Shown here in pieces: positions 5,911 through 30,939 of a DNA stretch of 64,000 bases. A program made the translations under genes and the position numbers. The stretch covers positions 9,910 through 73,909 of the forward strand of contig NZ_JAQWGB010000106.1 in the NCBI RefSeq assembly GCF_029238425.1. Reading direction: 5' to 3'. The stretch comes from Flavicella sp. (lineage in GTDB: Bacteria; Bacteroidota; Bacteroidia; Flavobacteriales; Flavobacteriaceae). The notes below the pieces were generated by a model. The model ran no database searches. It was not told the DNA's origin and saw nothing but the letters and a program-made list of their open reading frames with translations. Position 1 is the stretch's first letter. Every line of letters begins with the position of its first letter.

Positions 5911-6066
5911 GGTCAACTTCTTTTAAACAAAGGTATCAAAATGACTACAATTTAGTTTCACAAACACACCAGATTTTACCAACTCATTTAAAATCATTAC
6001 TTTTAAAATATCATTTTATGTAAGATGATCCATTTCAATCGACCAAAAGACAAACTAAACTTATTT

Positions 6067-6981
6067 ATGAAAAAAATTACACCCCTTGCATTTCTATCAG
6101 TACTATTGATGATTAGTGCTTGTTCCTCTTCTGATTCTGGAGAAATTGCAACAAAGAGTTTTACAACTGAGTTATCTGAAACCACTTTGAGTTTTGGAAA
6201 TGTTGAAGTAACAAATACTGCTGAGGAAACATTTACTGTCACTAACACAGGTACCGAAGAAATCTCTATCTCGAATATTACGACACCCGAAGGTTTTAGC
6301 GTGACTCCTTCCTCAGGAAGTATTGCTGCTGGGAACTCACAAACGTTTACAGTAGCGTTTACGCCAACTACAATTTCAGTTTTTAGCGGTAATATGTCAA
6401 TCACTTCAAATTCAACAAGTACGGCATCTATCATCAGCGTAACAGGAACAGGAATAGCTTCTACAAGTGCAAAAACTTACGAAAATACAATTGCCCCTAT
6501 TATGGCTCAAAGTTGTTCCACAACTGGTTGTCATTCTGGCGCTAATCCGGCAGGTCAAGTGGCACTTACCAACTTTACAGAAGTAAAAAACGGATTTACT
6601 ATTGATGATTCTTGGGGAGAAATACAATCAGGAAGAATGCCCAAACCAGGTGTACCGTCATTAACACAAGAAGACAAAGATAATTTACAGCTTTGGATAA
6701 ACGCTGGGTACCCTTCAGGTGAATTGGTAACCGTTAGTTATATTTCTAATATAGCTCCATTAGTAAATCAAAGTTGTGCTACAACCAATTGTCACGGTGG
6801 AACAAGATCACCATCACTTACTAATTATTCAGAAGTTAAAACAGCTTTCGAAGCTACCGGAACCAATAGTTCTATAGGTAGGATTGAAAGAGGTAATATG
6901 CCGAAAAATAGCTCAAAACTGGAACAAGCCAATATTGATCTTTTAAATACTTGGATTGCAACAGGCTTTATACAACAGTAA
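6067..6981 (+). CDS. Lipoprotein: Ig-like (choice-of-anchor D / HYDIN-type) domain plus two cytochrome-c-like CX4CH modules
   Basis: Lipobox in MKKITPLAFLSVLLMISAC|SS, with the ATG at 6067 preferred over 6025. The middle is a beta-rich TFTVTNTG..SQTFTVAFTP domain. The C-terminus holds two homologous ~80-aa modules, each with IAP(I/L)..QSC.TT.CH and G.MPK...L....L..WI..G. Confidence 0.65.
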   Translation: MKKITPLAFLSVLLMISACSSSDSGEIATKSFTTELSETTLSFGNVEVTNTAEETFTVTNTGTEEISISNITTPEGFSVTPSSGSIAAGNSQTFTVAFTPTTISVFSGNMSITSNSTSTASIISVTGTGIASTSAKTYENTIAPIMAQSCSTTGCHSGANPAGQVALTNFTEVKNGFTIDDSWGEIQSGRMPKPGVPSLTQEDKDNLQLWINAGYPSGELVTVSYISNIAPLVNQSCATTNCHGGTRSPSLTNYSEVKTAFEATGTNSSIGRIERGNMPKNSSKLEQANIDLLNTWIATGFIQQ

Positions 6982-12670: not shown

Positions 12671-13183
12671 TTAAACTCCAGCAATACGTTTGTCAATTGC
12701 ATACAAGTTCTCAACATCTTCACCGTGTAAATCGTATATTTTAACGGCATGACGCATTTTTTGTTCTTCCTCTTGTTGCTCATTCACAAACCATTGTAAG
12801 AACAACTCTGAAGCCACATCTTTTTCTTTTCTACAAGTCAAAAATATATTTTGAATCGATTTACTTACTTTAATTTCTTCTTGTAATGCAGTTTTGTACA
12901 AATCTAAAATCGACTCATAGTCATGACTGACTCCTTCAACTGTAGGAGAATATGCCATTCCTCCATTGTCATTTATATATTTGAAAATTTTCAACATGTG
13001 CTCTCTCTCCTCGCTAGACTGAGCATAGAAGAATTTAGCACTATGATCGTAACCATGTTGATCGCACCAAGATGCCATCGCCAAATAAGTTGCAGAAGCC
13101 TTTGCTTCCATTTTTATTTGATCATTTAATAAATCAATTACTTTAATATTTATAGAAAGATTTTCTCGAATTAGATTTTCCAT
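12671..13183 (-). CDS. ftnA: Non-heme ferritin
   Basis: 170 aa from the ATG at 13183 (MENLIRENLS...). Ferroxidase-centre context EAKASATYLAMASW, SSEEREHMLKIF and LQWFVNEQQEEE. The upstream 29-codon extension in the ORF track is rejected because a -7 box lies inside it. Confidence 0.9.
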   Translation of the reverse strand: MENLIRENLSINIKVIDLLNDQIKMEAKASATYLAMASWCDQHGYDHSAKFFYAQSSEEREHMLKIFKYINDNGGMAYSPTVEGVSHDYESILDLYKTALQEEIKVSKSIQNIFLTCRKEKDVASELFLQWFVNEQQEEEQKMRHAVKIYDLHGEDVENLYAIDKRIAGV

Positions 13184-13735: not shown

Positions 13736-13743
13736 TATATTTG
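13736..13743 (+). promoter_or_regulatory. Candidate -7 box TATATTTG
   Basis: Exact TAnnTTTG 31 nt upstream of the ATG at 13774. It overlaps the TTG at 13741 used by the ORF track, which argues for the 13774 start. Confidence 0.35.
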
Positions 13744-13773
13744 CCTTTTGAAAATCATCTAAAAATATTTTTC

Positions 13774-14400
13774 ATGTCAGTACTACCCATGCCTTTTAAA
13801 AAGCTACATGCTACAATCAAAGAATTATTAGAAAACTTAGAGATTTCTGAACCAACTACATTCCAGACTAAAAGTATTCCAGTTATTAAAAGTGGTGCGA
13901 ATGTATTTTGCACGGGACCTGCTGAATTAGGAAAAACTACGACACTAATTCTAACTACCATGCATAAATTGAAATGCGAAGCGGTAGGCACGGCACCTAG
14001 AGCCATCATTCTGGTGGAAAACAGAGAAAAAGCGTTGGCAATTTATGATACTTTGACAGCGTATACTCGTTACAATAGTTTGCGTGTTTATTTGGCTGAT
14101 GAGAAGATTCATATAGATTTACTAAAATCAGAAATATTTGAAGGCGTCGATATTCTTATTGCAACCCCACAATCTTTAAATAAATTGCTATTATCCAACG
14201 GAGTAAGTACTTCTTCTTTGATGTTGTTTAGTATTGATGATGCTGATTTTCTTTCACAAAGAGCTGCTTTTTCTACTTTATTGTCCATAACACCAAGTAT
14301 TACAAAATGCCAATTTGTATTATACGCTCAAAAAATGACACCAAAACTTCAGTCGTTAGATTCCTATTTTATGGAATATGCAAAGATTGTTTCGGTTTAA
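13774..14400 (+). CDS. Stand-alone degenerate DEAD-box RecA1-like domain protein
   Basis: 208 aa. The Q-motif region is kept (TTFQTKSIP). Other motifs are altered: I GPAELGKT (vs AxTGSGKT), Ia ENREKA (vs PTRELA), Ib TPQS (vs TPGR), II DDAD (vs DEAD), III YAQ (vs SAT). No RecA2 domain follows. Confidence 0.7.
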   Translation: MSVLPMPFKKLHATIKELLENLEISEPTTFQTKSIPVIKSGANVFCTGPAELGKTTTLILTTMHKLKCEAVGTAPRAIILVENREKALAIYDTLTAYTRYNSLRVYLADEKIHIDLLKSEIFEGVDILIATPQSLNKLLLSNGVSTSSLMLFSIDDADFLSQRAAFSTLLSITPSITKCQFVLYAQKMTPKLQSLDSYFMEYAKIVSV

Positions 14401-14442: not shown

Positions 14443-15897
14443 TTAAAACATTCCAGGGATTCCTCTCAATTGTCCCACGAGTGCTAAAGAGATCACACAC
14501 ACTAAGAACATGACACCAGGAATAATTAATTTTTCCTTCATCGATAAATTCTTAGCCCGCTCCTTATCTCCTATCAACCCTAAATTATCTAACAGCATAG
14601 TCAAAGCCCAACCAAAAACTGGATTTACAAAGGCACAAGCAAAAATACAAGTACCTGCACTTAAGGAACTTTTTTGTGTTTTAATCATTTGCATTCCCGC
14701 TTCGAGTAGTGGCAAGAATACTCCTACGATAAGTGCAATTCTCAGGACAGGTTCCCACATAGCCAAATCCATAGGGTATCCTAAAATGGCAAATGCAATA
14801 CATAAGATAGCCGTTAAAACAGCTCCTCCAGGAATCGGTCGTTTCGCAATTGCTGCTGGAATCATATAAGTTCCCCATGAGGAAGCGATATTTCCTCCTC
14901 CTAAAATAGAACCAATTATTTGACGGATGGAAGCAACTGTCATCGTATCATCAACATCCATTAATACTTTTTTTGCTTTTTTAGGGTAGTTTATTTCCTG
15001 AAACACTCGGTGACCTAAAAAATCCGGAGACCACATTGCAACCGCTAAAATTGCAAAAGGAACTACCGCTATATAATGCTCAAAGTTAGGCCACCCCAGT
15101 TTCCAACCGGTAGTTTCTCCCCACCAATAAAATGGACTAAAATGTGGAAGTCCAGGTTTGGTAGTAAAAGCAAAATCGGCTCCCATTAAAAAAGCAATCA
15201 ATCCTGCCAATGCAGAACATAATGGAATTGCCAACCACCTTTTGTTTACTCGAGCCAAATAGGCGTATATAAAAATTGTGACACCAATAATCACAAAGGA
15301 AAGTGCAATAATTTCAGTATCTGCAGACCAAAGTTCTAACTTTTTTATTTGACTGATCAGTCCAACGGCACCAAGATATATGAGCAAGCCTCCACGTACT
15401 CCCACACTTGTTAGGTTCATTAATTTGGACCCTCCTTTGGTTATACTTAATAATATTCCAAACACACCAATCAAAATCCCTAAGGCTAAAGGATGTCCTC
15501 CTGCAAGTGCAATGATTGGAATAAGAGGAATCATAGGGCCATGTGTTCCTGCAAGATTTGCTGTAGGGTTTAATATAGCCGAAAACAAAATAACAAATAT
15601 CCCTCCAGCGATTAATAATTCGTATCTGACATTTTCTGCAATAAATTCAGGAGTTAAGCCAAACTGGATAGCAAATGCAGCAACCATGGCTGTCACCATT
15701 ACCACCTTTCCAATAGTCGCTGCAAGTGCGGGTACCAAATCTTCAATTTCTATATGAAAATCACGAAATGGCAAGTGAACCTTCCATCTCTTAAAGTTCA
15801 TGATTTCTAATTCATGCTCTAAATACTCTTGACGTGTTTTAAATTCTTTTGATTTCTTGCGCTGTTTCTTATAGCTATTCTCTGATTTCATTTTCAT
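14443..15897 (-). CDS. Polytopic integral membrane protein, putative permease of unassigned family
   Basis: 484 aa. Basic N-terminal tail (KKQRKKSKEFKTRQ) followed by about 11-12 hydrophobic segments rich in G/A/P. The family was not recognised by eye. Confidence 0.6.
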   Translation of the reverse strand: MKMKSENSYKKQRKKSKEFKTRQEYLEHELEIMNFKRWKVHLPFRDFHIEIEDLVPALAATIGKVVMVTAMVAAFAIQFGLTPEFIAENVRYELLIAGGIFVILFSAILNPTANLAGTHGPMIPLIPIIALAGGHPLALGILIGVFGILLSITKGGSKLMNLTSVGVRGGLLIYLGAVGLISQIKKLELWSADTEIIALSFVIIGVTIFIYAYLARVNKRWLAIPLCSALAGLIAFLMGADFAFTTKPGLPHFSPFYWWGETTGWKLGWPNFEHYIAVVPFAILAVAMWSPDFLGHRVFQEINYPKKAKKVLMDVDDTMTVASIRQIIGSILGGGNIASSWGTYMIPAAIAKRPIPGGAVLTAILCIAFAILGYPMDLAMWEPVLRIALIVGVFLPLLEAGMQMIKTQKSSLSAGTCIFACAFVNPVFGWALTMLLDNLGLIGDKERAKNLSMKEKLIIPGVMFLVCVISLALVGQLRGIPGMF

Positions 15898-16105: not shown

Positions 16106-17476
16106 CTACGCGTCAAAAACACTAGAAAGAATAACATCTTTAACAGCCACAGCTTCAATATTGTCACTATGATTGTTTTCTGAAATAATGACAGGCATTT
16201 CATTAAAAGGTACATCTACCCTACCATGAGATCCTTGAATCATTTCTCCTTTCAAAGGAATAAAATCGAACAACACTCTAAATCCCATTTTTTTTAGCAA
16301 CAACTTTGCCACAACTTGAAGTTTGATAGCGGTTTTATCAGTATCCAAAAACATTTCTACCGGATCATAACCAGGTTTGTCATGAATCGCTACAGTTCTT
16401 GCAAAATCTGGTGCATTTTTATCGTCCAACCAATAGTAGTAGGTAAACCAAGCATTTGCTTTAGCCACAACCATAAATGCTCCTGATCGATCTTTATGCC
16501 ACAAACCTCTAGAGACTTGTTCCTTTTTATCCAATATTTCTTCAACGCCTTCCGTTTGCTTTAATATTGCCAATACCTCCTGCTCTACTTCAGGTTTACA
16601 ATAAATATGTGCTACTTGATGGTCTGCTACTGCAAACGCATTACTAGTACCCGCATCCAACAATTCTTTATGGTTCTCAGTGCGCACCGCTAAAAGACCA
16701 GATTTTCTGAAAATCCTATTCAAATGAATAGGTGTATCTACTGGAGATATTCCGTATTCTGAAACAACTATTGGGGTTACATTTTTAGCTTCGTAAAAGG
16801 AAATAAGATCTTTTAATACATCATCAATTTCTAAAATATCCTTTTTTACCTGTGGTGAATCCGCCGTATATTTTTGGAAACAGTAATCTAAATGAGGTAA
16901 ATAAATCAATTGCAAAGTCGGATTACACGTGTCATGCACATATTTAGAAGCATCCGCAATCCACTGACTAGATTTTATTGTTGTTCTAGGTCCCCAAAAA
17001 TCAAACAAAGGAAAAACCCCAAATTTGTCTTGTAACTCGTCTCTAAGGTTTGAAGGATGACTATAACAATCTGGCTTTTTTAGCCCGTTAGCTCTATATT
17101 GAGGTCTAGGGGTAACAGAATAGTCAACACTAGAGTACATATTATACCACCAGAACATATTGGCACAAGTAAAATCTTCGTTTTTGATTTTTGCCTCATC
17201 CCAAATATTTGGACTCTCAACCAATTTATTGGATTGTTTCCAAAATTGCACTTCTGATTGCTCTTTATGATACCAACCATTTCCGACAATCCCATGTTCC
17301 GAAGGAGTTTTACCAGTCAAATAAGTCGTTTGCATGGTGCAGGTAACAGCTGGAAGAACAGGAGTAATTGTAGAGACCTTCTTGTTTCTTTTACTCCATT
17401 GTGAGATGAATAAACTTTGGTCCTCTAATATTTTTGTAGTCAATCCAACTACATTAATTACCACTGTTTGCTTCAT
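16106..17476 (-). CDS. eboF: EboF-type alkaline phosphatase / nucleotide pyrophosphatase superfamily protein
   Basis: 456 aa from the ATG at 17476 (MKQTVVINVVGLT..). AP-superfamily features: an N-terminal metal-site threonine context (PAVTCTMQTTYLTG) and LPHLDY. It holds the last position of the ebo order. Confidence 0.8.
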   Translation of the reverse strand: MKQTVVINVVGLTTKILEDQSLFISQWSKRNKKVSTITPVLPAVTCTMQTTYLTGKTPSEHGIVGNGWYHKEQSEVQFWKQSNKLVESPNIWDEAKIKNEDFTCANMFWWYNMYSSVDYSVTPRPQYRANGLKKPDCYSHPSNLRDELQDKFGVFPLFDFWGPRTTIKSSQWIADASKYVHDTCNPTLQLIYLPHLDYCFQKYTADSPQVKKDILEIDDVLKDLISFYEAKNVTPIVVSEYGISPVDTPIHLNRIFRKSGLLAVRTENHKELLDAGTSNAFAVADHQVAHIYCKPEVEQEVLAILKQTEGVEEILDKKEQVSRGLWHKDRSGAFMVVAKANAWFTYYYWLDDKNAPDFARTVAIHDKPGYDPVEMFLDTDKTAIKLQVVAKLLLKKMGFRVLFDFIPLKGEMIQGSHGRVDVPFNEMPVIISENNHSDNIEAVAVKDVILSSVFDA

Positions 17477-17481
17477 TCTTT

Positions 17482-18687
17482 TTAATTTATTTGATTCAAA
17501 ACCCATTCCATTTCCCTAGAGACTGCCGTCGTAATATCTGTTTGCATTTGATCAGGTAACACGTCCCAAGTATACGTTTCTATTTCTAAATGATTCGTAA
17601 AGGCATTGTCCTTCCATAATTTTAAAACTTCAATTAAATCATCTTGAGTAGATTGTAGTTTTTGATAATCTGCAAGAAATATTGGTACATGATAATGTGT
17701 TCTTAATTCCCGAAAAGTAGCACTTTCCATTGCTTCAATGGCAACATCTAAATCGGGAAATTTCCTAAATTCTCCATTTTTAGTTTTTATAATTGCCTGA
17801 TGAAGATAATTTGGTTCATGAAAGGCCAGCAGATGATCTTGCAATTCATTAAGAGCGTAATTCCCATCAATATGACATTTTAAAGCTGAACTCAGTTGTA
17901 ACTTCCCTATTTTTATTTTATGGGTATTCATCAACGAAATAACCTCCGAAGGCTTTTCAAATGCAACAGCAGAATGGCAAATATCAAAACACAACTGAAC
18001 ATGCTCTCTGATCGCTAGTTCAGCTTCTGCCCTAGTACATTCTTTTAAAGTTTGTAATTCTGAAATTCCCTTTCCGATAAGAAATTCATTGTAAAATGCT
18101 ACGAACTCATTTGAATTTTCAATGATCCCATCAGGTTCTGGCTCTATATCTAAATGGAGTGTTTTTCCTGTTTTGGATTTTATGTCCATTAAATGAAAAA
18201 CTACATCTATAATTGCCGAACAAGCTTGCGTTTTTGCTTTCACTAATTCCGATGGGTTATGGTGCCAAAACTTATAAGAAATCGGTGATGTTGAAATCCC
18301 GCCAGTCATTGATTCTGGTAATAATTCACCTAAAATATCAAACAATTGCTTTGTATAATTTTTCCTTGAAATATTTGTCCAATCCGGTGCATGAACTTGA
18401 TCTTTTATCACTTCCCCATGAAAACTACCAAAAGGAAACCCGTTCATAGTATATACATACAGCTGATGTTCTTTTAACCAGGTTTTAAAATTGCGCAAAG
18501 TTTCTTTTTTACTCAATTCCTCAGCAGCAATATTTGACAAACGCAGGCCTATACCGAAAGGAGCATCGGGTGAAATCCTACTTTTAACTTCTAGAATATA
18601 AATCTCCAAGTTTTTAAAAATCTCGCTCCAAGATTCACCTGCATGAATATTTGTACAATAACTTAAATGGCCTGTTCCAATCTTCAT
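17482..18687 (-). CDS. eboE: EboE-type xylose-isomerase-like TIM-barrel protein (metabolite traffic protein EboE)
   Basis: 401 aa. N-terminus MKIGTGHLSYCTNIHAGESW. Its start forms an ATGA overlap with the eboD stop (18684-18687). Confidence 0.8.
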   Translation of the reverse strand: MKIGTGHLSYCTNIHAGESWSEIFKNLEIYILEVKSRISPDAPFGIGLRLSNIAAEELSKKETLRNFKTWLKEHQLYVYTMNGFPFGSFHGEVIKDQVHAPDWTNISRKNYTKQLFDILGELLPESMTGGISTSPISYKFWHHNPSELVKAKTQACSAIIDVVFHLMDIKSKTGKTLHLDIEPEPDGIIENSNEFVAFYNEFLIGKGISELQTLKECTRAEAELAIREHVQLCFDICHSAVAFEKPSEVISLMNTHKIKIGKLQLSSALKCHIDGNYALNELQDHLLAFHEPNYLHQAIIKTKNGEFRKFPDLDVAIEAMESATFRELRTHYHVPIFLADYQKLQSTQDDLIEVLKLWKDNAFTNHLEIETYTWDVLPDQMQTDITTAVSREMEWVLNQIN

Positions 18688-19868
18688 ACGGCATGTAAAT
18701 TTATGACAAAGGTTTTTATAAAGGCAACAGATTCATTTAATTTTTCTTCCTCCATCTCATGAATTTCCCCCCCTTTCCCTATCGATTTTAATAGCATTAT
18801 GGTCAGTTCACCTCCCAAATGCTCTCTAAATTCTTCTAGACCACTTATTAATTCTGGATTTATCGCATTTTTATCCTCAGGATCGAATAATAACTCATGA
18901 TCCAATTGAAAATTCAATTGTTGAAAACATGTTATTATACGTAACATTTCTTCTTTCGTCAAAAATCCTTTAAAGTAAGAATAAGAACTATCTAATACTA
19001 TACCTACTGCAACTGCCTCACCATGTGTGAGTTTGTAATTGGTTAAATACTCCAATTTATGTGCCGCCCAATGCCCAAAATCCAAAGGCCTTGAAGAGCC
19101 TTGTTCAAAAGGATCCCCTGCAGTTCCTATATGCTCTGTGTGCAATTCAGCACATCGGAATATCAAATGCTCAATGGTTTTAGAATCCCTGTTATTTAAA
19201 AGGGTACTATTATTTTCTATCCATTCAAAGAAAGATACATCTTTTATCAAAGCAACTTTTATGGCCTCGGAGATACCAGAACGAAAATCACGATCCGATA
19301 AACTATCTAAAAAGTAGCTGTCATTGATTACAGCAAACGGAGGTTGAAAGGTTCCTAAAAAATTCTTTTTTTCAAAATAATTGAAGGAATTTTTCACCCC
19401 AACACCTGAGTCATTTTGAGAAAGTACCGTGGTCGGAATTCGAATCAATCGAACACCTCTATGAGCAATTGCACTTGCAAAGCCAACCATATCAAGTACA
19501 GCACCACCTCCGACTGAGATAATAAAGGAATGTCTGTCGATTTTCTGAGTATTTAATAATTCTAAGACACTTTCTACAGAGTTCCAATTATTTTTAACCT
19601 TTTCACCACCATCCACGATAAGAGGAGTTCCCATTAAAGTGATATTTTTATGATAGGTTTGAAAATAGGTTTCAATCTTATCTATTAGCTGACGTTGATG
19701 CGCATACAACCCTTGATCCAAAACCACCACAGCTTTTGCCGTTCTTATAGAAGGTACACTTGTCAATACTTCTTTTAAAAATGTATTCTCAGCTCTAAAT
19801 ACATCTTCAGTAAAAGAGATGTTATAATTGAATTGAACTTGAAAGTTTTGTTGTATTACTTTATTCAT
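18684..19868 (-). CDS. eboD: EboD-type 3-dehydroquinate-synthase-like sugar-phosphate cyclase
   Basis: 394 aa. DHQS-fold motifs: GGGAVLDMVGFASA (NAD site), IPTTVLSQNDSGVGVK, and metal ligands in the HTEH and HG.AVA contexts. Confidence 0.85.
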   Translation of the reverse strand: MNKVIQQNFQVQFNYNISFTEDVFRAENTFLKEVLTSVPSIRTAKAVVVLDQGLYAHQRQLIDKIETYFQTYHKNITLMGTPLIVDGGEKVKNNWNSVESVLELLNTQKIDRHSFIISVGGGAVLDMVGFASAIAHRGVRLIRIPTTVLSQNDSGVGVKNSFNYFEKKNFLGTFQPPFAVINDSYFLDSLSDRDFRSGISEAIKVALIKDVSFFEWIENNSTLLNNRDSKTIEHLIFRCAELHTEHIGTAGDPFEQGSSRPLDFGHWAAHKLEYLTNYKLTHGEAVAVGIVLDSSYSYFKGFLTKEEMLRIITCFQQLNFQLDHELLFDPEDKNAINPELISGLEEFREHLGGELTIMLLKSIGKGGEIHEMEEEKLNESVAFIKTFVINLHAV

Positions 19869-19913
19869 AAATTAAACCTAAATAATCTTCTACTTATTTT
19901 CTTTCTACTTCTA

Positions 19914-20801
19914 TTAGGTGACTGCATAACGTTTGGCCACAAAAATTGACAGTGGTAACAAACACAATAAAAGCAATCCATAAACTCCATTTGAAAAGCC
20001 TGCTACATAAATAGCATTTAATGGGATTAAGGATAATACCCCTGTTTTTACAGCATTCTTAATTTTTTCTGGAATATTATTTTTTATCGCTCTTATTTTT
20101 GCATTCAAGTTAATTCCATACCAGAATATTAAAAATGGACTTGATGTAAGAATATCCAAATATCCTTTTAGCATCAAAACAATAAAAAAACCAACTACAG
20201 AAGTATCCAGTAATATAGCTTTAAAAATTGAGTTTTTATTGTGACCATGTGCTTCTTTTTGCCCTACAAGAGTAATAGCAGCAACAAACACCAAAGGAAC
20301 AAAACCAATAAACCACATAGACGAAACAACAGAAGGAACTATACTCATCCCTAATAATAAATTTGCCGATCTACATAACCCCATATTTATAGGCCCTAAA
20401 ACAGTATTATGTTTCGAGAACTTATCATATGACATGGCTAAAGCTGCTGTTGTAGTCGCTAGCATTCCGCTAAAAACAGAGACCAAAAACCCACAACTGA
20501 TTCCTGTTAAAAACAATAGGCTTCCAAAATAAATCGCTTCTTGTTTTGAAATTTTTCCTAATGGAAGCACTCGCTCAGGTCTATTTTTCTTGTCGTCCTC
20601 AATATCAAAAATATCATTAAAAACAATTCCACCCCCATACAAACCTATTGTTGCGAGTATAAGAAGAAAACTGTTCCTCAATAATTCTTCATCAAAAGAA
20701 TTTATTAAAACTCCAGAAATCGCTAAACCTGCAACAATATCTGATATCGCTGTTATGATATTGGCTGGACGAGCCATTTTGATAAAACTACCTAACCTCA
20801 T
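19914..20801 (-). CDS. eboC: EboC-type UbiA-family prenyltransferase
   Basis: 295 aa from the ATG at 20801 (MRLGSFIKMARPANI..). First Asp-rich motif NDIFDIEDD, about 8 TM helices. The start lies 1 nt after the eboB stop (TAAcATG). Confidence 0.85.
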   Translation of the reverse strand: MRLGSFIKMARPANIITAISDIVAGLAISGVLINSFDEELLRNSFLLILATIGLYGGGIVFNDIFDIEDDKKNRPERVLPLGKISKQEAIYFGSLLFLTGISCGFLVSVFSGMLATTTAALAMSYDKFSKHNTVLGPINMGLCRSANLLLGMSIVPSVVSSMWFIGFVPLVFVAAITLVGQKEAHGHNKNSIFKAILLDTSVVGFFIVLMLKGYLDILTSSPFLIFWYGINLNAKIRAIKNNIPEKIKNAVKTGVLSLIPLNAIYVAGFSNGVYGLLLLCLLPLSIFVAKRYAVT

Positions 20802-20802
20802 G

Positions 20803-21708
20803 TTAGTTTTTGATAATATTTGAATACGTTTTTTTGACAAATTCTTGTCCACGTAAAACCGAATTTCCATTCAAAAGTTCCTGCTCTTCAATCTTCATTT
20901 CTGTCAACCAATCTGATTCGTTAAATTGACCGCTCTGTCCGTAAACATCCAATGCATTTTTATAACAAGTTAGGTGCATGTCTTCTTGAGAAACACCTCT
21001 TTCTATCATAAGTGCAGCGGTTTTTGGAACAGCTAATGGGTCACTTACCCCCCAATCTGCCGAACTGTCAACGATAATTCTTTCTGAACCATATTGTTTT
21101 ACAACTTCTACCATTCTTTCATTTCCCATTTTGGTATTTGGGTAAATGGTGAAAGCAGCCCAATATCCTCTGTCTAAAACATCTTTTACTGTTTCTTCAT
21201 TATTGTGATCAATTACAACCATGTTTGGAGCTACACCATGTTCTTTAATGACATCCATACTTCTTATGGTTCCATTTTTCTTGTCTCTATGAGGTGTGTG
21301 AACCATTATCGGTAAATTTAGCTCTTTAGCCAATTCTATTTGCTGTCTAAAGTATTTATCCTCAGCCGCTGTTTGATCGTCATATCCAATTTCACCAATA
21401 GCTACAACTCCCTCTTTGGCTGCATACAATGGTAATAGGTCCATAACTTCCTCTGCCAAAGCTTCATTATTAGCTTCTTTAGAATTCAGTCCAATGGTAC
21501 AATAATGCTTGATACCAAATTGAGAAGCCCTAAAACGTTCCCAATTGACCAAGCTATTAAAATAATCTTGAAAAGAACCAACTGAAGTTCTTGGTTGTCC
21601 CATCCAAAAAGCGGGTTCAATAATCGCAACAATTCCTGCTGCTCGCATCGCTTCGTAATCGTCAGTTGTACGAGAAACCATGTGTATATGTGGATCAATA
21701 AAATGCAT
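20803..21708 (-). CDS. eboB: EboB-type TatD-family metal-dependent hydrolase
   Basis: 301 aa. The HxH motif at the N-terminus (IDPHIHM), IGEIGYD and MVHTPH are typical of the TatD/amidohydrolase fold. Confidence 0.85.
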   Translation of the reverse strand: MHFIDPHIHMVSRTTDDYEAMRAAGIVAIIEPAFWMGQPRTSVGSFQDYFNSLVNWERFRASQFGIKHYCTIGLNSKEANNEALAEEVMDLLPLYAAKEGVVAIGEIGYDDQTAAEDKYFRQQIELAKELNLPIMVHTPHRDKKNGTIRSMDVIKEHGVAPNMVVIDHNNEETVKDVLDRGYWAAFTIYPNTKMGNERMVEVVKQYGSERIIVDSSADWGVSDPLAVPKTAALMIERGVSQEDMHLTCYKNALDVYGQSGQFNESDWLTEMKIEEQELLNGNSVLRGQEFVKKTYSNIIKN

Positions 21709-21725
21709 TGTTAAGTGTTTAAGTA

Positions 21726-22553
21726 TTAAATGTTATAGTATTCTTTTCCTACAGATTCCCAAAACCCTGTATCTGTATTAGTCTGTGTATTATTTAGTTC
21801 CAGTACTTTTGTAGCAACTTTCTTCTCTATGGCATTTTCTGAAGTACAAGCTTTGCTAACTGTTTTTTCTAAATCTTGGTTGATGTTACCCAGCATTAAC
21901 TGCCAAAGTTCTGGAGTGAAATTTCTTCCGGCAGCCCAACGTTCATGAACATAATCATTGGCAACCAAGGCTAATTTTTCATTATTTCTTTCTTGAAGTT
22001 TATAAATTGGATACAATGGGCGATAATTAAAAATACCTTTTAAGACCAATTGATTCCAACTATTTTCAGACAAATATGTCGCTGGGAACGGATTGTAGTG
22101 TGCAATCGCATCATAAATGGTAATTACATTGCTACGAATACCTTCTTCAATAAACGAAATGAAGTCTTCTGAATTTTCTAAAAAATATAGACTTTTATAC
22201 AAATCTTCTTGCTCCTTATCACTTGCTGTGTTTTCAAGAAATTGCAAGGTTTTTTTATTTGTTTTCGGATCCAAGTGCAGCATCAATAAAGCCCTTGTGA
22301 GAGAATGTGTATTCCATCCTTTCGCATGGAATGAAGGATAGATATCTTCCAGAACTGCTAATTCGTTCTCTGAATAAGAAATATCATTTCTAGAAATAAA
22401 ACGATACACCAAACTATAGGCTAACAAAAACTTTTTACCTGTAGCATCTTCATCAATTTTATTAAAATTTGAAGCTAGCCACTCAAATTCTTTATCCGTT
22501 AAATGATGCTTTAATAGCTTTTCTAAAAAAAATACTGTTGAGATTTCCGACAT
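21726..22553 (-). CDS. eboA: EboA-like protein (function unknown)
   Basis: 275 aa, helical, no catalytic motif. Assigned from its position as the first gene ahead of the TatD/UbiA/DHQS-like/TIM/AP series. Confidence 0.7.
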   Translation of the reverse strand: MSEISTVFFLEKLLKHHLTDKEFEWLASNFNKIDEDATGKKFLLAYSLVYRFISRNDISYSENELAVLEDIYPSFHAKGWNTHSLTRALLMLHLDPKTNKKTLQFLENTASDKEQEDLYKSLYFLENSEDFISFIEEGIRSNVITIYDAIAHYNPFPATYLSENSWNQLVLKGIFNYRPLYPIYKLQERNNEKLALVANDYVHERWAAGRNFTPELWQLMLGNINQDLEKTVSKACTSENAIEKKVATKVLELNNTQTNTDTGFWESVGKEYYNI

Positions 22554-22775: not shown

Positions 22776-22810
22776 AAAAATCCGACAGTTTATGTACTAT
22801 CGGATTTTTT
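22776..22810. terminator. Hairpin terminator separating the ferritin-like operon from the ebo operon
   Basis: AAATCCGACAGT / ACTATCGGATTT stem (one mismatch) flanked by an A5 run and a T6 run. Confidence 0.55.
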
Positions 22811-22866: not shown

Positions 22867-24030
22867 TTATTCCTGTGCTACTTCTAATGAAAACTTCTCA
22901 CTTTCGCTCAAGTCTTGTGAAACCACATATTCATAACTCGGACCTGCCACAAAACCAGGATTATTTGGATCTGGTAAAGCCATAAGTTTCAATGCATATA
23001 ATCTCAATGCATACATAGATCCCATGGCGTTGCTCAATTTATCTGGCTGACCATTAAAGGTTTCATGCAAACTATTCAATAAATTGGTATAGTTATAGTT
23101 GAACAATTTACTATTTAGATAAGCTAAAGAGTTTACGGAATAATCACTCATTTTTGGGTTTTCCGTCATATTTGGAACCTCATTTGCATAAAACGGTATT
23201 TCATCACCTCCATAAGAATACCCTACTTCAGATGAACTGTCTTTGATCAATTCTTTACCCGCATAGATTTCACCGAATCTATAATAATGCGCTGGTTCAT
23301 TTGCGGTATCCCCATCAATATCCGCTTCCACAAAAGGATCTGTCGTACTTCCTTCCCCTTGATCTACAATTATTTCTATCGCTCTTTTTGCGGTTTCTAA
23401 ATCCGTAATAGCAAATAATTCTGATTCAGGAAACCAATTAGGATTCACAACTTGCTTGCTCATAGCTCCACAAAATATAGTTTCACCTTTTAGCTTTGCA
23501 ACAATTTCATAAATTTCTAAAAGCAGTGTAATATATTCATAATATTCACCTATTGTTAAATTGTCTTTTGCTTCTAATTCTGAAACTCTCTGCTCTAACT
23601 GAGATTTCAAATCTGAATTTGCCAATAATTTGTTAGACGATATTTTGATATCAATCGGATGCTCAGGTTCCTCTATCACCATAAAAACATCTTTAACCAA
23701 GGATTTAGAAAATTTTGCAATAGGTACCGTTAAACCAGATTCAACTCCACCAGGTAAAGGTCCAGGATATGTAGGAACAAATCCTTTTTCATTCAAAACA
23801 GGGGAACCATCTATGGCATTCAATAAGTTACAAGCAATGGTCAAATGAAGCATTTCTTCAATCACAACGGAATGAATCAAACCTGCTATTTTAGTGTTCT
23901 TTGTATTTGCCAATGAAAACATTGCTGTCAAATACGGAGGAATTGTTGCATGCTCTAATTCAATCGCAGTCTGTATAGAATCTTTAAGTTTTTTAAGAGA
24001 ATCTATCTTTTTATTTTTAAGTAAAATCAT
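22867..24030 (-). CDS. Ferritin-like domain protein (VioB/RebD-related ferritin-like family), putative di-metal enzyme
   Basis: 387 aa. AIELEHATIPPYL and VIEEMLHLTIACNLLNA give two ExxH helices. No signal peptide and no TM segment. Confidence 0.65.
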   Translation of the reverse strand: MILLKNKKIDSLKKLKDSIQTAIELEHATIPPYLTAMFSLANTKNTKIAGLIHSVVIEEMLHLTIACNLLNAIDGSPVLNEKGFVPTYPGPLPGGVESGLTVPIAKFSKSLVKDVFMVIEEPEHPIDIKISSNKLLANSDLKSQLEQRVSELEAKDNLTIGEYYEYITLLLEIYEIVAKLKGETIFCGAMSKQVVNPNWFPESELFAITDLETAKRAIEIIVDQGEGSTTDPFVEADIDGDTANEPAHYYRFGEIYAGKELIKDSSSEVGYSYGGDEIPFYANEVPNMTENPKMSDYSVNSLAYLNSKLFNYNYTNLLNSLHETFNGQPDKLSNAMGSMYALRLYALKLMALPDPNNPGFVAGPSYEYVVSQDLSESEKFSLEVAQE

Positions 24031-24048: not shown

Positions 24049-25836
24049 CTATTTTGCAGCTACTGCTTCATTCATTTGTTTGTCGTTGATGATACCCTCT
24101 AAATAATTAAGAATCATTTGTTGTTTATCTCTTGATAAATCTCTGGTAACGGGCATGTAATTTGGGTCTGATACTTCTTTACCAAAAACAAATTTTAGTA
24201 TTTCGGCATGTTTATCCACTACTTCTTGATTGGATAGTTTAAACACTCCTCGTGACATTATCGGATATAAGTTCGAATACTGCTGCATCGTTGGCTGTAA
24301 ATCGGACCACTTAGGGTTTTCAATCACATCCTTCGCTACTTTGTCAAAAACCATAATACTTATAAAATTTATTGGATTGCAATCCACAAAAAACGATCCC
24401 TCTAAACTATAATTCAAAGCATACAACTGACCGTCAATAAATTCTCTTGGATTTCCCGGGTCAGCAGCATTTAATTCCATGTATGCCACTCCATTCTCAT
24501 CTGTTTTCACAGCTGGAGTAAATATCAAGGCACTCAAAGGAACTCCTAATGTAGGATTGTCTGCTCCTTGTAATAAATTCGCAGTATCATAATTTACCAC
24601 GATCGATTTATTTGCCAATGGCTTTCCAAATTCAGTAGCATAAAACTTTACATGGGCAGTATCTTCTGGGTTCATACGAAATACATAGGTATCAGCAACC
24701 ACATAATTTTTTCTTTCCTCTAACATTGGAGTTGCAGATTGTTTAAGACCTAAACTATTTGTTTGACTTGTAGAGTAATCAAGGATCACCAATGGATTCT
24801 TTTGAACCAGTTCTAAATTTTCTTTGGATAAATCAAAAGTGCAAATCCCCGAATCCTTTTCGTACCAACCTGGTTCATTATAATTAACAGCTCCTAAATA
24901 AACATAATTCGGATTTTCCTTTGTACCAGTATTTATAGCCAAAGTCATGTTTGCGTTTTCGATGATCCCTACTTGTGCTGTTGCAATCGTTTCTGGCTTT
25001 CCTTCCGTATCGATGATATCAATAGGTGCTTGAGGTGCAATTCCAAATTGTAAAGAATTTGAGAAATTTAAAACGACTTGACTTAATTTTTCATCTACAA
25101 TAGCCATTGCATAATTAACTGAAGATACGCTAGGAAACAACTGTCTACCTTGAATGTGATGCACAGGCTCCTCATCAAATACAGGTCCGATAGTCCCCAC
25201 CATCCTACCTAAAGTAAATTCAGGAGAAGTATGATCTCCATTGTATCTATCAACGGTAAACTGTATAGATAAACTATCTTTGCTGGTTTGCATCAATTCT
25301 TTCAGATACCTAGAACCAACGTTTTCTATATCCCACTCTAAATTTTTTATTTGTGATTGATAGGTGGCTGCTGCAGCAGAATCGGCTTTTTTATCTAAAG
25401 ACCTATTGAACCAGATATTAGTAAATGCTGCTACTTCATAATCACCTTTCACATAAGTTGAATCTCCTTTTCCAATTCGAACAATAAGTCCCCAAATTTC
25501 AGAAACCATTTGTTGTTGAGAATCTAAATCTACCATCTTTCCCGCTACTCTAGAGTCGGTATCCATAATATTCATACCAATAATGGGGTCTTTTTTGGGA
25601 TCTTTTGTACTTGTACCATCCAAATACGTAACACTTTGAATTTTTAGGTCTATCAAACGAAAATTTCCAGTTCCGGTAGGATTCCACCAACCATTGGCAT
25701 TTTTACCATCTTGAAAATCTTGATAGCTTGATTGGAAGGTTGCATTATTAAAATGATTGGGATCATTGTTTACTGTAGATACATCTGACTGAAACCTTCC
25801 GGAAAAGGTAAGTCTAGGGGTTTGTAAATAAGACAT
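24049..25836 (-). CDS. Large conserved-looking hypothetical protein with no recognisable domain
   Basis: 595 aa from the ATG at 25836 (MSYLQTPRLTFSGRFQSDVSTVNND..). Uninterrupted coding-like composition. It ends 18 nt upstream of the ferritin-like gene. Confidence 0.75.
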   Translation of the reverse strand: MSYLQTPRLTFSGRFQSDVSTVNNDPNHFNNATFQSSYQDFQDGKNANGWWNPTGTGNFRLIDLKIQSVTYLDGTSTKDPKKDPIIGMNIMDTDSRVAGKMVDLDSQQQMVSEIWGLIVRIGKGDSTYVKGDYEVAAFTNIWFNRSLDKKADSAAAATYQSQIKNLEWDIENVGSRYLKELMQTSKDSLSIQFTVDRYNGDHTSPEFTLGRMVGTIGPVFDEEPVHHIQGRQLFPSVSSVNYAMAIVDEKLSQVVLNFSNSLQFGIAPQAPIDIIDTEGKPETIATAQVGIIENANMTLAINTGTKENPNYVYLGAVNYNEPGWYEKDSGICTFDLSKENLELVQKNPLVILDYSTSQTNSLGLKQSATPMLEERKNYVVADTYVFRMNPEDTAHVKFYATEFGKPLANKSIVVNYDTANLLQGADNPTLGVPLSALIFTPAVKTDENGVAYMELNAADPGNPREFIDGQLYALNYSLEGSFFVDCNPINFISIMVFDKVAKDVIENPKWSDLQPTMQQYSNLYPIMSRGVFKLSNQEVVDKHAEILKFVFGKEVSDPNYMPVTRDLSRDKQQMILNYLEGIINDKQMNEAVAAK

Positions 25837-27981: not shown

Positions 27982-30939
27982 TTATATTTTTATAACCTTT
28001 TTGTAGGCAGTATAAGAATCAGCACTTATTTTTAAAATATACATACCTGTAGCCAATTGAGAAGCATCAACTCTCGGTAAACGTGAGTCAACTTGAATCT
28101 TTTTAATTAAACGCCCTGATGCAGATAACACTTCTACTTCCATTTGTTGGATCCTCTCTGCGATGGTGAAATAGAAATACCCATTTGATGGATTTGGGTA
28201 TACCTGTAATTTTCTACTAAACTCTTCATTGACACTCAACTCACCTTCAGAACCAATATTCCCCGATACACCGTTCACTATCTCGTTGTATTTCCATAAA
28301 TTATATTCTGTATCTTCAGAGAACAACCAATTACTACTATCATTAATACTAGCTCTTAGTTCTGCTGCAGTACCAGATAAAGCCCCTGTGTACACTCCAT
28401 AATTATGCTTCTCTCCTACTTGGTTTGCATTTAATCCATTTGTTAAAGCGGTAGGCAATTCACAATACGAATTTCCACCTCCTAAGCCCCAACCAGAACC
28501 AGTATGCAATCCTGTTATCCATAAACTAGCAGAAGCATCAGTTGGCAATGCAAAAGGGTCTGCTTGAAAAAATAGTATTCCATCTCCATTTGTGGATAAG
28601 TCAAAATCACCATCACTGCTTTCAGCTGCTTTTCCTGTATGATCATGAGAAGTGGTACCAACTACTTCCTGGGAATCCATATTGACCCGTTTTACCAATC
28701 CATCAGAATCCAATATAAAGTGATCCCCAACAGCTAAAGCTTCTCCCGCAGACCAAGTCCAAATATCATCTACACTATAGTCACCAGTAAATTGACTAGA
28801 ACCATTGCTCCATGTTCTATTAGATATCGAAATTTTAGTTGTAGCACTTATATCTTTTAATAAAACAAATCCTATTTTTCCAGAACCAGCTTTCCAACCT
28901 GTAAGAGCAATATCTCCAGCTGTTAAGGTTGTAGGGTTTATAACATCGTAAATAGTAATTTGTGCAGGAGTTTCGTTTACAGTTCCCGTTGAAATTCCGG
29001 TTAAAGTCAAGATTACTGTTTCACTAGTCTCATCAATACCGTCTTCAATTGCATTGATACTGATCTCACTCGAATTGGTAGCTTCTAAAATTGTGATTGT
29101 ACCCGAAATTGTAGAATAATCAACTCCATTAGTAGCTTCTCCTGAAATTGAATAACTGATATCAATATCTTCTGTTGCCAAAACATCCTCAGGCAAACTC
29201 ACTTTAAAGATTCCGTTAGTTCCACCCTCAATTGCATCACTTGTACCACTAATCGAAACAATACTTAGTTCGCCTTCCAATTTTAACAATGGGCTTTCAA
29301 AAAGTCTATCATACCCCGGTAATGTTCCATCTTTCCATAAAGGACCATGAACATGGGTATCCCCTTCACCATCGGCATCACTGTCATAATGAGCATTGTC
29401 ATACCAAGCAGGCTTAACATCTTTGAAATCCTTAACCAAAGTAATTGCTTTGTCTAATATGTCTTGAACAATTTCTTCACCACCTGACTGACTTCTTATA
29501 TTGGTGCTTTCTCCTGGATCTGTAGAAATGTCATACAAGTTCCATTGTCCACCATTGGCTGTTTTTACAATTTTATAATTTTCATAAGCAAAAGCTCCGT
29601 TATGAAAGCCATTTTGTGGTCTCATTACCAAAAGTCCTTCGTCAGGCCTGGCATCATCTCCATCAATCATAGCATCCATAAAATCAACCCCATCAATAAT
29701 TTTACCTGCAGGAACAGATTCTCCTGCTAAACCAATTAAGGTTGGATAAATATCTAATGAGCTTATTTGATGATCATAAGTTGCTGGTGAAATCTTATCT
29801 GGCCAAGAAACAAACATAGGAACTTTGTGACCGCCATCTCTAACACTACCTTTTCCCGCATCTAAAGGATAATTAACTGCTCCTTTACTATGTGTATAAC
29901 CTCCGTTGTCACTTAAAAAAATAATAACGGTGTTATTGAATTTTGTCATGTCTTTTTTAAGTTCTGTAACCAATCTTCCAATATTTGTATCCATATTGGA
30001 AACCATAGTCGCATAAGTAATTCTAGCATCGACAAACTTATCAATCAATTCTTGCTTCTCTGCGGGGTCATCTACCTTCTCTACTGGTGTTGACTCTGTA
30101 ATATAAGTACTATTACTTATCAAGCTTTCAAAATTAGGATTGTCTAATTTAAACCGAGCTTCTTCTGCTGCAGGTACTTGCAATGGTGTGTGCGGTGCAT
30201 TATAGGACAGGTACATAAAATAAGGATCAGAAGAATTTGAAATGCTTTGGATATAAGTAATCACATCATCCGTTATTACATCAGTTAAATAATCCTCCTC
30301 ATTGGTGTTGCTGAACTCATTTCTATCTACATATGCTCTATTTCTCCACACCGGATCTTGATATTCATTCGTAACTGGGTTATCACCATCAAGACGATTG
30401 TAAAAGGCATCTTCATAAATAGATTCAAAATAGTTTTTACCACCACCTAAAAAACCAAAAAAGTAGTCGAAACCACGATCCAAAGGTTGATACGATCCTT
30501 CTGTAAAACCTAAATGCCATTTTCCAAAGGCCGCAGTATTATAGTCAGAATCTTGCAATACTGTAGTAAAATAAGTTTCGTTTACCGGAATCCCTAGCGG
30601 GGTTGTAATATCATTTGGTAAATTATATTGTGCTCCTATTCTATGAGGAAGCATACCTGTAAGCAATGCCGCTCTACTTGGCCCACAAAAAGGATGTGCC
30701 ACATGTGCATTTTTACAGACGATACCGCTATTTGCAAGTTTATCTATCTCAGGTGTTGGAATTACACCTCTATCAATTGGAAAATCATCTTCTCTATTGA
30801 AACCAACATCACCGTACCCCAAATCGTCTGCTAAAATAACGATGACATTGGGTCTAGATCCATTGGTACTTTGTGCTAATACAAAATGAGATGCACTTAG
30901 CATAATTAAAGAAAGTAGTAGTTGTTGTAGTTTAGTCAT
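27982..30939 (-). CDS. Secreted multidomain sulfatase with Calx-beta domain and T9SS C-terminal sorting domain
   Basis: 985 aa. Signal peptide, sulfatase signature CGPSRAALLTG (formylglycine C-x-P-x-R) and DDLGYGD. A Calx-beta-like segment (DISYSISGEATNGVDYS..ETVILTL). C-terminal VYPNPSNGYFYF...GMYILKI is a Por secretion tail. Confidence 0.85.
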   Translation of the reverse strand: MTKLQQLLLSLIMLSASHFVLAQSTNGSRPNVIVILADDLGYGDVGFNREDDFPIDRGVIPTPEIDKLANSGIVCKNAHVAHPFCGPSRAALLTGMLPHRIGAQYNLPNDITTPLGIPVNETYFTTVLQDSDYNTAAFGKWHLGFTEGSYQPLDRGFDYFFGFLGGGKNYFESIYEDAFYNRLDGDNPVTNEYQDPVWRNRAYVDRNEFSNTNEEDYLTDVITDDVITYIQSISNSSDPYFMYLSYNAPHTPLQVPAAEEARFKLDNPNFESLISNSTYITESTPVEKVDDPAEKQELIDKFVDARITYATMVSNMDTNIGRLVTELKKDMTKFNNTVIIFLSDNGGYTHSKGAVNYPLDAGKGSVRDGGHKVPMFVSWPDKISPATYDHQISSLDIYPTLIGLAGESVPAGKIIDGVDFMDAMIDGDDARPDEGLLVMRPQNGFHNGAFAYENYKIVKTANGGQWNLYDISTDPGESTNIRSQSGGEEIVQDILDKAITLVKDFKDVKPAWYDNAHYDSDADGEGDTHVHGPLWKDGTLPGYDRLFESPLLKLEGELSIVSISGTSDAIEGGTNGIFKVSLPEDVLATEDIDISYSISGEATNGVDYSTISGTITILEATNSSEISINAIEDGIDETSETVILTLTGISTGTVNETPAQITIYDVINPTTLTAGDIALTGWKAGSGKIGFVLLKDISATTKISISNRTWSNGSSQFTGDYSVDDIWTWSAGEALAVGDHFILDSDGLVKRVNMDSQEVVGTTSHDHTGKAAESSDGDFDLSTNGDGILFFQADPFALPTDASASLWITGLHTGSGWGLGGGNSYCELPTALTNGLNANQVGEKHNYGVYTGALSGTAAELRASINDSSNWLFSEDTEYNLWKYNEIVNGVSGNIGSEGELSVNEEFSRKLQVYPNPSNGYFYFTIAERIQQMEVEVLSASGRLIKKIQVDSRLPRVDASQLATGMYILKISADSYTAYKKVIKI

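Follow-up and report, generated by a model that had tools for sequence, protein, structure and literature searches.

A complete eboABCDEF operon and a conserved upstream gene pair in a Flavicella-like marine flavobacterium

The eboABCDEF operon and its described relatives

Operons of the eboABCDEF type have been described from Bacteroidota (Maribacter, Zobellia, and Algoriphagus), cyanobacteria, and eustigmatophyte plastids (PMC5133447, 10.64898/2026.05.21.724671). Here, we report such an operon, together with a conserved gene pair directly upstream of it, in a 64-kb stretch of contig NZ_JAQWGB010000106.1 from a Flavicella sp. assembly (GCF_029238425.1), termed the window herein, to which coordinates refer unless another locus is named. 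EboC of Maribacter, Zobellia, and Algoriphagus catalyzes the farnesylation of (hydroxy)quinoline-2-carboxylates (PMC9235831). A preprint of May 2026 found ebo genes in 27 of 27 thallusin producers and 0 of 8 nonproducers, and tied to these genes the biosynthesis of thallusin and saccharoquinoline from a cyclitol plus L-aspartate (10.64898/2026.05.21.724671). In the same study, aspartate labeling revealed that L-aspartate enters the quinoline core intact, EboC farnesylated 6,7,8-trihydroxyquinaldic acid ethyl ester, and single deletions of eboB, eboC, eboE, and eboF in Stieleria each abolished thallusin; the thallusin-producing Bacteroidota carried exactly eboABCDEF, and no enzyme was found for the oxidative ring-opening that leads from saccharoquinoline to thallusin (10.64898/2026.05.21.724671). 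Mannose-6-phosphate is the substrate reported for EboD orthologues, and the EboD product is treated in PMC12904256. A further relative is the EDB cluster of Pseudomonas fluorescens NZI7, which consists of the six ebo genes and three further genes without a known function (Burlinson 2013; Zhou 2022, both as relayed in PMC12904256 and PMC6282210); some of the extra open reading frames (ORFs) encode signal peptides, according to Klicki et al.

In the window, the ORF listing and direct reading of the minus strand both gave six co-directional genes from 22553 to 16106, and the source-scaffold gene calls agreed with the lengths of all six proteins:

eboA, 21726..22553, minus strand: EboA-domain protein (NF035938), 275 amino acids (aa)
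eboB, 20803..21708, minus strand: TatD-fold metal-dependent hydrolase (PF01026), 301 aa
eboC, 19914..20801, minus strand: membrane UbiA-type prenyltransferase (NF035940), 295 aa, with the longest ORF beginning at 20870
eboD, 18684..19868, minus strand: cyclase of the EboD class (PRK06203), resembling 3-dehydroquinate synthase (DHQS), 394 aa
eboE, 17482..18687, minus strand: xylose-isomerase-like TIM barrel (NF035939), 401 aa
eboF, 16106..17476, minus strand: alkaline-phosphatase/NPP superfamily protein (PF01663), 456 aa, with an alternative ATG at 17506

The canonical eboA-F order given in the initial annotation was borne out by ORFs, profiles, and direct reading, and the three tight junctions that it listed proved exact to the nucleotide. 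At eboB/eboC the sequence reads TAAcATG (20805-20799), with the eboB TAA at 20805-20803, one intervening nucleotide (nt), and the eboC ATG at 20801-20799; eboD and eboE share four nucleotides, ATGA at 18687-18684, which hold the start of eboE and the stop of eboD; and eboF begins with its ATG at 17476, 5 nt (17481-17477) past the stop codon of eboE. Intergenic distances at the other junctions are 17 nt for eboA-eboB and 45 nt for eboC-eboD. Because six family-specific matches occur in the canonical order, chance is excluded, and the locus is a genuine six-gene eboABCDEF operon. Its G+C content (0.34-0.35) and base composition are without anomaly. Sigma-70-type sites were not in excess (58, versus 51 ± 7.6 in shuffled sequence) and the Bacteroidota -7 motif TAnnTTTG was absent from the five intergenic regions of the locus, so promoters could not be located.

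Each protein was assigned by profile scores judged against curated cut-offs (Pfam, NCBIfam, and PRK models). EboA scored 127 bits against EboA_domain NF035938 (cut-off 50) and fell under the cut-off of the full-length EboA_family model NF035937 (180 versus 320 bits); PF28008 EboA is recorded for the matching source-scaffold gene, and identity to EboA of 68 comparator loci was 27-40%. EboB matched PF01026 TatD_DNase with 75 bits (cut-off 27). EboC scored 337 bits against prenyl_rel_EboC NF035940 (cut-off 250), and its NDxxDxxxD motif (N62, D63, D66, and D70), R144, and Y55 did not vary across an alignment that included the EboC proteins of Maribacter, Algoriphagus, Nostoc, and Mycetohabitans; R144 and Y55 are probably the counterparts of R145 and Tyr-56 in UbiA-297 (PMC9235831). 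EboE scored 476 bits against TIM_EboE NF035939 (cut-off 250) and had 7987 homologues at E<=1e-20, the closest named ones of which are annotated as EboE. EboF matched PF01663 Phosphodiest with 202 bits (cut-off 23) and shared 49-58% identity with its counterparts in 77 loci. In the closest relative, a metagenome-assembled genome (MAG; L169), EboF carries a fused C-terminal VOC domain, which the window's EboF does not have. PDB sequence searches returned no match for EboA, EboE, or the 595-aa protein encoded upstream.

Like the AroB, DOIS, EEVS, and DDGS cyclases, EboD has the N- and C-terminal DHQ_synthase domains, and it matched DHQS entries in the PDB with 81-143 bits. It differs from AroB-type cyclases in scoring under the cut-off of the aroB equivalog TIGR01357 (224 versus 305 bits) and in belonging, with 556 bits (cut-off 333), to the PRK06203 class along with EboD proteins of ebo clusters; the EboD proteins of Maribacter, Nostoc, Mycetohabitans, and related-MAG clusters had the same pattern. 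Identification as a true AroB, the 3-dehydroquinate synthase of the shikimate pathway, was thus rejected. Two outcomes had been set beforehand as speaking against an ebo assignment, namely a cyclase grouping with true AroB and a first gene failing the EboA profiles, and the scores above reveal that neither is the case.

For comparison, GTDB was scanned on the basis of an alignment, with each species represented by a single genome, and 80 ebo loci were collected; a scan with the single protein EboE gave nothing. The order ABCDEF was found in 55 of the 80 loci, and a Nostoc-type order with inverted eboD in nine. The window shares with the known operons the same six families, order, strand, and tight junctions. 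EboB was the most conserved Ebo protein (65-81% identity in 71 loci, median 70%), and EboC to EboF were 34-59% identical to the comparators. With Maribacter sp. L073, which has the same order, identities were 74% (EboB), 42% (EboC), 51% (EboD), 45% (EboE), and 55% (EboF), and the nearest EboE in a named genome was 64% identical. The window differs from the known operons in its new host lineage and in a divergent EboA, which falls under the EboA_family cut-off, and, unlike Maribacter-type ebo loci, which have no VioB-like gene pair within 10 kb, it has one directly upstream. A metagenome scaffold is all that is known of the host, a Flavicella-like marine member of the Flavobacteriaceae; the ferritin-like protein of the window's pair is 99% identical to that of a Flavicella sp. 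MAG.

The initial annotation described a complete eboA-F operon and took its pathway to be an orphan one whose product is unknown; the first half of this stands, and the second is superseded by the EboC biochemistry and the thallusin preprint. Its background on scytonemin export in Nostoc and on the Pseudomonas EDB locus was correct (PMC6282210; PMC12904256). The ebo pathway is no longer orphan, and the locus is a new instance of a known system.

The gene pair upstream of eboA

The initial annotation recognized the six ebo genes and overlooked a conserved two-gene module directly upstream of them, at 25836-22867. The features of this region are as follows:

Accessory gene 1, 24049..25836, minus strand: 595-aa protein of no Pfam family, mostly beta-strand; the mechanical ORF is longer and starts from TTG
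Accessory gene 2, 22867..24030, minus strand: 387-aa ferritin-like protein (PF12902), putative di-metal four-helix bundle
Terminator-like hairpin, 22776..22809, minus strand: 14-pair stem and 6-nt loop followed by a T-rich tail, between accessory gene 2 and eboA

The two genes lie 18 nt apart. The 595-aa protein had 644 homologues, none of them named, and many residues are invariant among them. Its partner matched PF12902 with 229 bits, and its invariant residues include E26, H27, E58, E59, H62, E120, E226, H248, E254, and H322, a set of conserved Glu and His that would fit a di-metal site. When the 595-aa protein was used to retrieve 80 metagenome loci, its gene was directly followed by the ferritin-like gene in nearly all of them, and the Chromobacterium protein P0240 is a natural fusion of the 595-aa family with a PF12902 domain, in that order. 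AlphaFold models were confident, with scores (predicted local distance difference test) of 82 for the 595-aa protein and 83.5 for the ferritin-like protein. The only significant structural match of the latter was 3hl1, a ferritin-like structural genomics entry of unknown function; the fold search with the former gave nothing meaningful, only generic Ig-like beta-sandwich matches with template modeling (TM) scores of ~0.15.

Residues 516-589 of the 595-aa protein aligned with positions 515-589 of the VioB model TIGR04492 (E=9e-7, 27 bits), and the ferritin-like part of the family aligned, weakly, with positions ~658-895. Because these matches are weak but collinear, the architecture is that expected of a split and very distant VioB-type protein, in which the 595-aa protein would resemble the N-terminal part and the ferritin-like protein the C-terminal part; the same-order fusion in P0240 adds to the likeness. 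The differences from VioB/StaD/RebD proteins are considerable. Scores were 16-27 bits versus a TIGR04492 cut-off of 1250, with only 74 C-terminal residues of the 595-aa protein aligned and no match for the window's own ferritin-like protein; the pair is encoded as two polypeptides; and no tryptophan oxidase, vio, sta, or reb genes lie nearby, nor did any of the 40 window ORFs scanned against Pfam carry an amino-acid oxidase domain. An imine-dimer synthase proper of the VioB/StaD/RebD kind was rejected, since the pair failed every test of it: the score, the single polypeptide of ~1000 aa, and the adjoining L-tryptophan oxidase (VioA/RebO/StaO).

Viewed from the ebo side, a scan that is without selection bias, the pair occurred in 4 of the 80 GTDB ebo loci: immediately upstream of eboA in three Flavobacterium species (L001-L003), and between eboB and eboC in Nostoc sp. 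NIES-4103 (L015). Viewed from the pair, ebo genes were its most frequent neighbors in a neighbor ranking and were present in the available flanks of 9 of the 80 metagenome pair loci, in various orders and at 42% to 69% G+C. Aureibacter, Pedobacter gandavensis, and L169 have the pair followed by eboA-F, with pair-to-eboA gaps of 13 nt in P. gandavensis and 34 nt in L169, compared with 313 nt in the window. The megaplasmid of Mycetohabitans endofungorum (L168) carries nine genes in the order pair, EboD, a secreted 347-aa protein, EboE, EboC, EboA, EboB, and EboF, and a Gloeothece plasmid carries EboB, EboD, the pair, and a member of the same secreted family. In a rough neighbor-joining tree of EboE, built without bootstrap, the pair-linked ebo clusters of Bacteroidota formed one clade, in which a Pedobacter is grouped with flavobacteria.

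A third family, glyoxalase-fold VOC proteins of ~130 aa, connects the two gene sets. It is fused to the EboF C-terminus in L169 (11215-13059) and located just after EboF in two loci, and in several others it comes after the ferritin-like protein or is joined to it (e.g., L001 ~12704-13093 and L002 ~5682-6086); the EboF-fused and ferritin-fused VOC domains are 41% identical. Functional coupling of the pair and ebo is argued from the recurrent synteny, the shared VOC fusion, and the EboE clade. In relatives, the VOC domain would join the module and, outside Bacteroidota, a secreted protein of ~320 aa would do so as well. What appears to be new here is a conserved pair whose link to ebo consists in recurrent synteny, seen in three or more named phyla, and in a common VOC fusion partner; in the searchable literature, including the supplement of the thallusin preprint, ferritin-like or glyoxalase genes are not mentioned in connection with ebo.

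Several further genes were observed around the pair in other genomes. The secreted family (~300-350 aa, with signal peptide) accompanied the pair in seven non-Bacteroidota loci (L168 14773-15816, L115 9046-9924, L167 13443-14411, L135, L124, L151, and L082), in three of which it lies inside or directly beside the ebo cluster; its members are 41-63% identical to each other and matched no Pfam or NCBIfam model. The metagenome locus L115 encodes an EboD with a fused N-terminal VTT/DedA membrane domain (1759-3693), and in seven other loci the pair has small VTT-domain genes in its vicinity (L082, L090, L112, L125, L134, L142, and L156). About 3.5 kb upstream of the M. endofungorum array (L168 3498-6559) are a LodA/GoxA-type amino-acid oxidase gene and a gene named 'tryptophan 7-halogenase', which is possibly a LodB-like partner; PF12902 genes are known to adjoin fungal lodA-like genes (PMC4417212). 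A Pyrinomonadaceae contig (L082 10001-17657) carries two closely spaced copies of the pair, the second reversed with the ferritin-like gene first, with a TonB-dependent receptor gene upstream and no ebo genes nearby. In Algoriphagus machipongonensis PR1, the pair and a VOC gene lie away from ebo, beside a TonB-dependent receptor gene; this strain was tested in the thallusin preprint, which lists Algoriphagus among the producer genera (10.64898/2026.05.21.724671).

Proposed pathway and alternative explanations

Since the orthologue literature has ended the orphan status of ebo (PMC9235831; 10.64898/2026.05.21.724671), we consider it likely that eboABCDEF at this locus encodes a meroterpenoid pathway of the thallusin/saccharoquinoline type, with the upstream pair as an ebo-coupled accessory module whose role would most likely be oxidative tailoring. 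Following the experiments on orthologues, a cyclitol and the four carbons and nitrogen of L-aspartate would be combined into a polyhydroxy-quinoline-2-carboxylate, the membrane enzyme EboC would farnesylate the quinoline ring and may also cyclize the prenyl chain, and the product would be a saccharoquinoline-type meroterpenoid that then undergoes oxidative ring-opening to thallusin. The condensation, dehydration, and dephosphorylation steps of quinoline formation would fall to EboA, EboB, EboE, and EboF as a group. For the pair, the candidate role is, most likely, the oxidative tailoring of the electron-rich hydroxyquinoline product. With this operon, a Flavicella-like marine Flavobacteriaceae lineage joins the organisms predicted to produce thallusin-type signals; at picomolar levels, thallusin governs the morphogenesis of seaweeds.

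The pair is a candidate both for the late oxidation of thallusin that lacks an enzyme and for the extra genes of the EDB cluster, and this lead is testable. Like EDB, the window combines ebo with extra genes, and the nine-gene size of EDB is matched by the Mycetohabitans (L168) and metagenome (L115) clusters, each of which comprises the six ebo genes, the 595-aa family, PF12902, and the secreted ~320-aa protein. The window differs from EDB in gene order, in having two extra genes only, and in lacking the secreted ~320-aa family. Expression of EDB in E. coli gave indole derivatives including dimers (PMC12904256). A bolder version, which we regard as unlikely, would make the pair a previously unrecognized oxidative ebo module that opens the trihydroxyquinoline ring of saccharoquinoline-type intermediates oxidatively or oxidizes it in another way, the step left without an enzyme in the thallusin preprint, and would equate this module with the three EDB extras; if true, it would explain the indole dimers observed on heterologous EDB expression.

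A number of observations weigh against the proposed pathway or against the part that it gives to the pair. The sources of the thallusin link are a preprint still awaiting peer review and orthologues with only 42-74% identity. Genetics in Nostoc pointed to a role in scytonemin-monomer export (PMC6282210), and expression of the Pseudomonas EDB cluster yielded indole derivatives (PMC12904256). No structural or sequence match in PDB and fold searches gave the pair a chemistry, and the window has no VOC partner, with searches for a remnant in the 313-nt gap, in the 208-nt gap downstream of eboF, and in the whole window returning noise. In about 75 of the 80 ebo loci, Maribacter L073 among them, the pair is missing from the surrounding 10 kb, and of the 15 pair loci whose sequence extends 8 kb or more in both directions only two have ebo within 10 kb. 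As pairs are mostly found without ebo, and ebo mostly without the pair, the pair is neither required for nor dedicated to ebo. In the window, the hairpin points to separate transcription of the pair and ebo, and together with the 313-nt gap before eboA it puts the pair probably on its own transcript. Overall, the pair is an accessory module and not a core ebo component, and an oxidative tailoring role for it is plausible.

We weighed three other explanations. It is possible, but on balance doubtful, that the pair-linked ebo subtype, including this locus, makes an end product unlike that of the Maribacter type, with the VioB-like pair oxidizing, coupling, or ring-opening a hydroxyquinoline meroterpenoid or an amino-acid-derived imine; the candidates would be an altered analogue of thallusin, a dimer, or a compound derived from indole. 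The separate EboE clade of the pair-linked Bacteroidota clusters is consistent with this idea, as is the recurrence of the pair, VOC, and the secreted ~320-aa protein with ebo across phyla. The EDB variant with its three extra genes, moreover, gave indole derivatives including dimers in E. coli (PMC12904256), and VioB-type enzymes dimerize an indole-pyruvate imine, according to the name of TIGR04492. Yet the VioB similarity is remote (27 versus 1250 bits), no amino-acid oxidase gene was seen among the 40 window ORFs scanned, and A. machipongonensis PR1, a member of a listed thallusin-producing genus, has the pair away from ebo; because this strain has the pair, the pair is compatible with ordinary thallusin production.

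Quite unlikely, in our estimate, is an ebo product that, instead of being a secreted signal, serves as a membrane-associated carrier or helper in moving other metabolites over the inner membrane, as was proposed for scytonemin monomers in Nostoc. NCBI names for EboA and EboE remain 'metabolite traffic protein', and VTT/DedA is fused to EboD in one locus, with VTT genes near the pair in seven further loci. Thallusin was, however, found in ebo-positive Nostoc, where the scytonemin phenotype has been argued to be indirect (10.64898/2026.05.21.724671); EboC takes free hydroxyquinoline carboxylates and farnesyl diphosphate (PMC9235831; 10.64898/2026.05.21.724671); and the 40 window ORFs scanned included no scytonemin-type genes. 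We find it highly improbable that EboB (TatD-like) and EboE, with its AP-endonuclease-2/xylose-isomerase fold, would be DNA-repair nucleases that confer self-resistance to a genotoxic product in the manner of yatakemycin YtkR4 and YtkR5. YtkR4 and EboB share ~24% identity and ebo-like clusters with YtkR5-like proteins have been reported, but no reported cyanobacterial ebo cluster has a YtkR5-like protein (10.1101/2024.09.16.613364), the match of EboE to AP_endonuc_2 was below threshold (16 versus 31 bits), and deletion of eboB or eboE singly in Stieleria abolishes thallusin (10.64898/2026.05.21.724671).

Neighboring genes in the window

Downstream of eboF, at a distance of 208 nt, lies one further gene on the same strand:

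DUF3360 gene, 14443-15897, minus strand: 484 aa

No terminator-like site was found between eboF and this gene, and a clear hairpin lies beyond it at 14437-14411. We considered it as an ebo exporter and rejected this role, as such a gene lies near ebo in 0 of the 80 loci and is likewise not near ebo in L169; its absence from the surroundings of ebo in all 80 loci indicates that it is probably an unrelated neighbor, if perhaps a co-transcribed one.

Three other genes in the window merit mention. At 13741-14400 on the plus strand is a DEAD-box helicase ORF of 219 aa (208 aa in the source-scaffold call) with the N-terminal DEAD domain only; the Helicase_C part was not seen, and the ORF may be a truncated gene or a pseudogene. 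A 1447-aa ORF at 40890-45233 (minus strand) combines a full AcrB-type RND pump (residues 5-1032) with an outer-membrane efflux protein (OEP) domain (1267-1422), and would be either a fusion of inner- and outer-membrane components or a read-through artifact. Lastly, the minus-strand gene at 27982-30939 encodes a 985-aa sulfatase with a Calx-beta domain and a type IX secretion C-terminal sorting domain, which fits a marine, polysaccharide-degrading flavobacterium.

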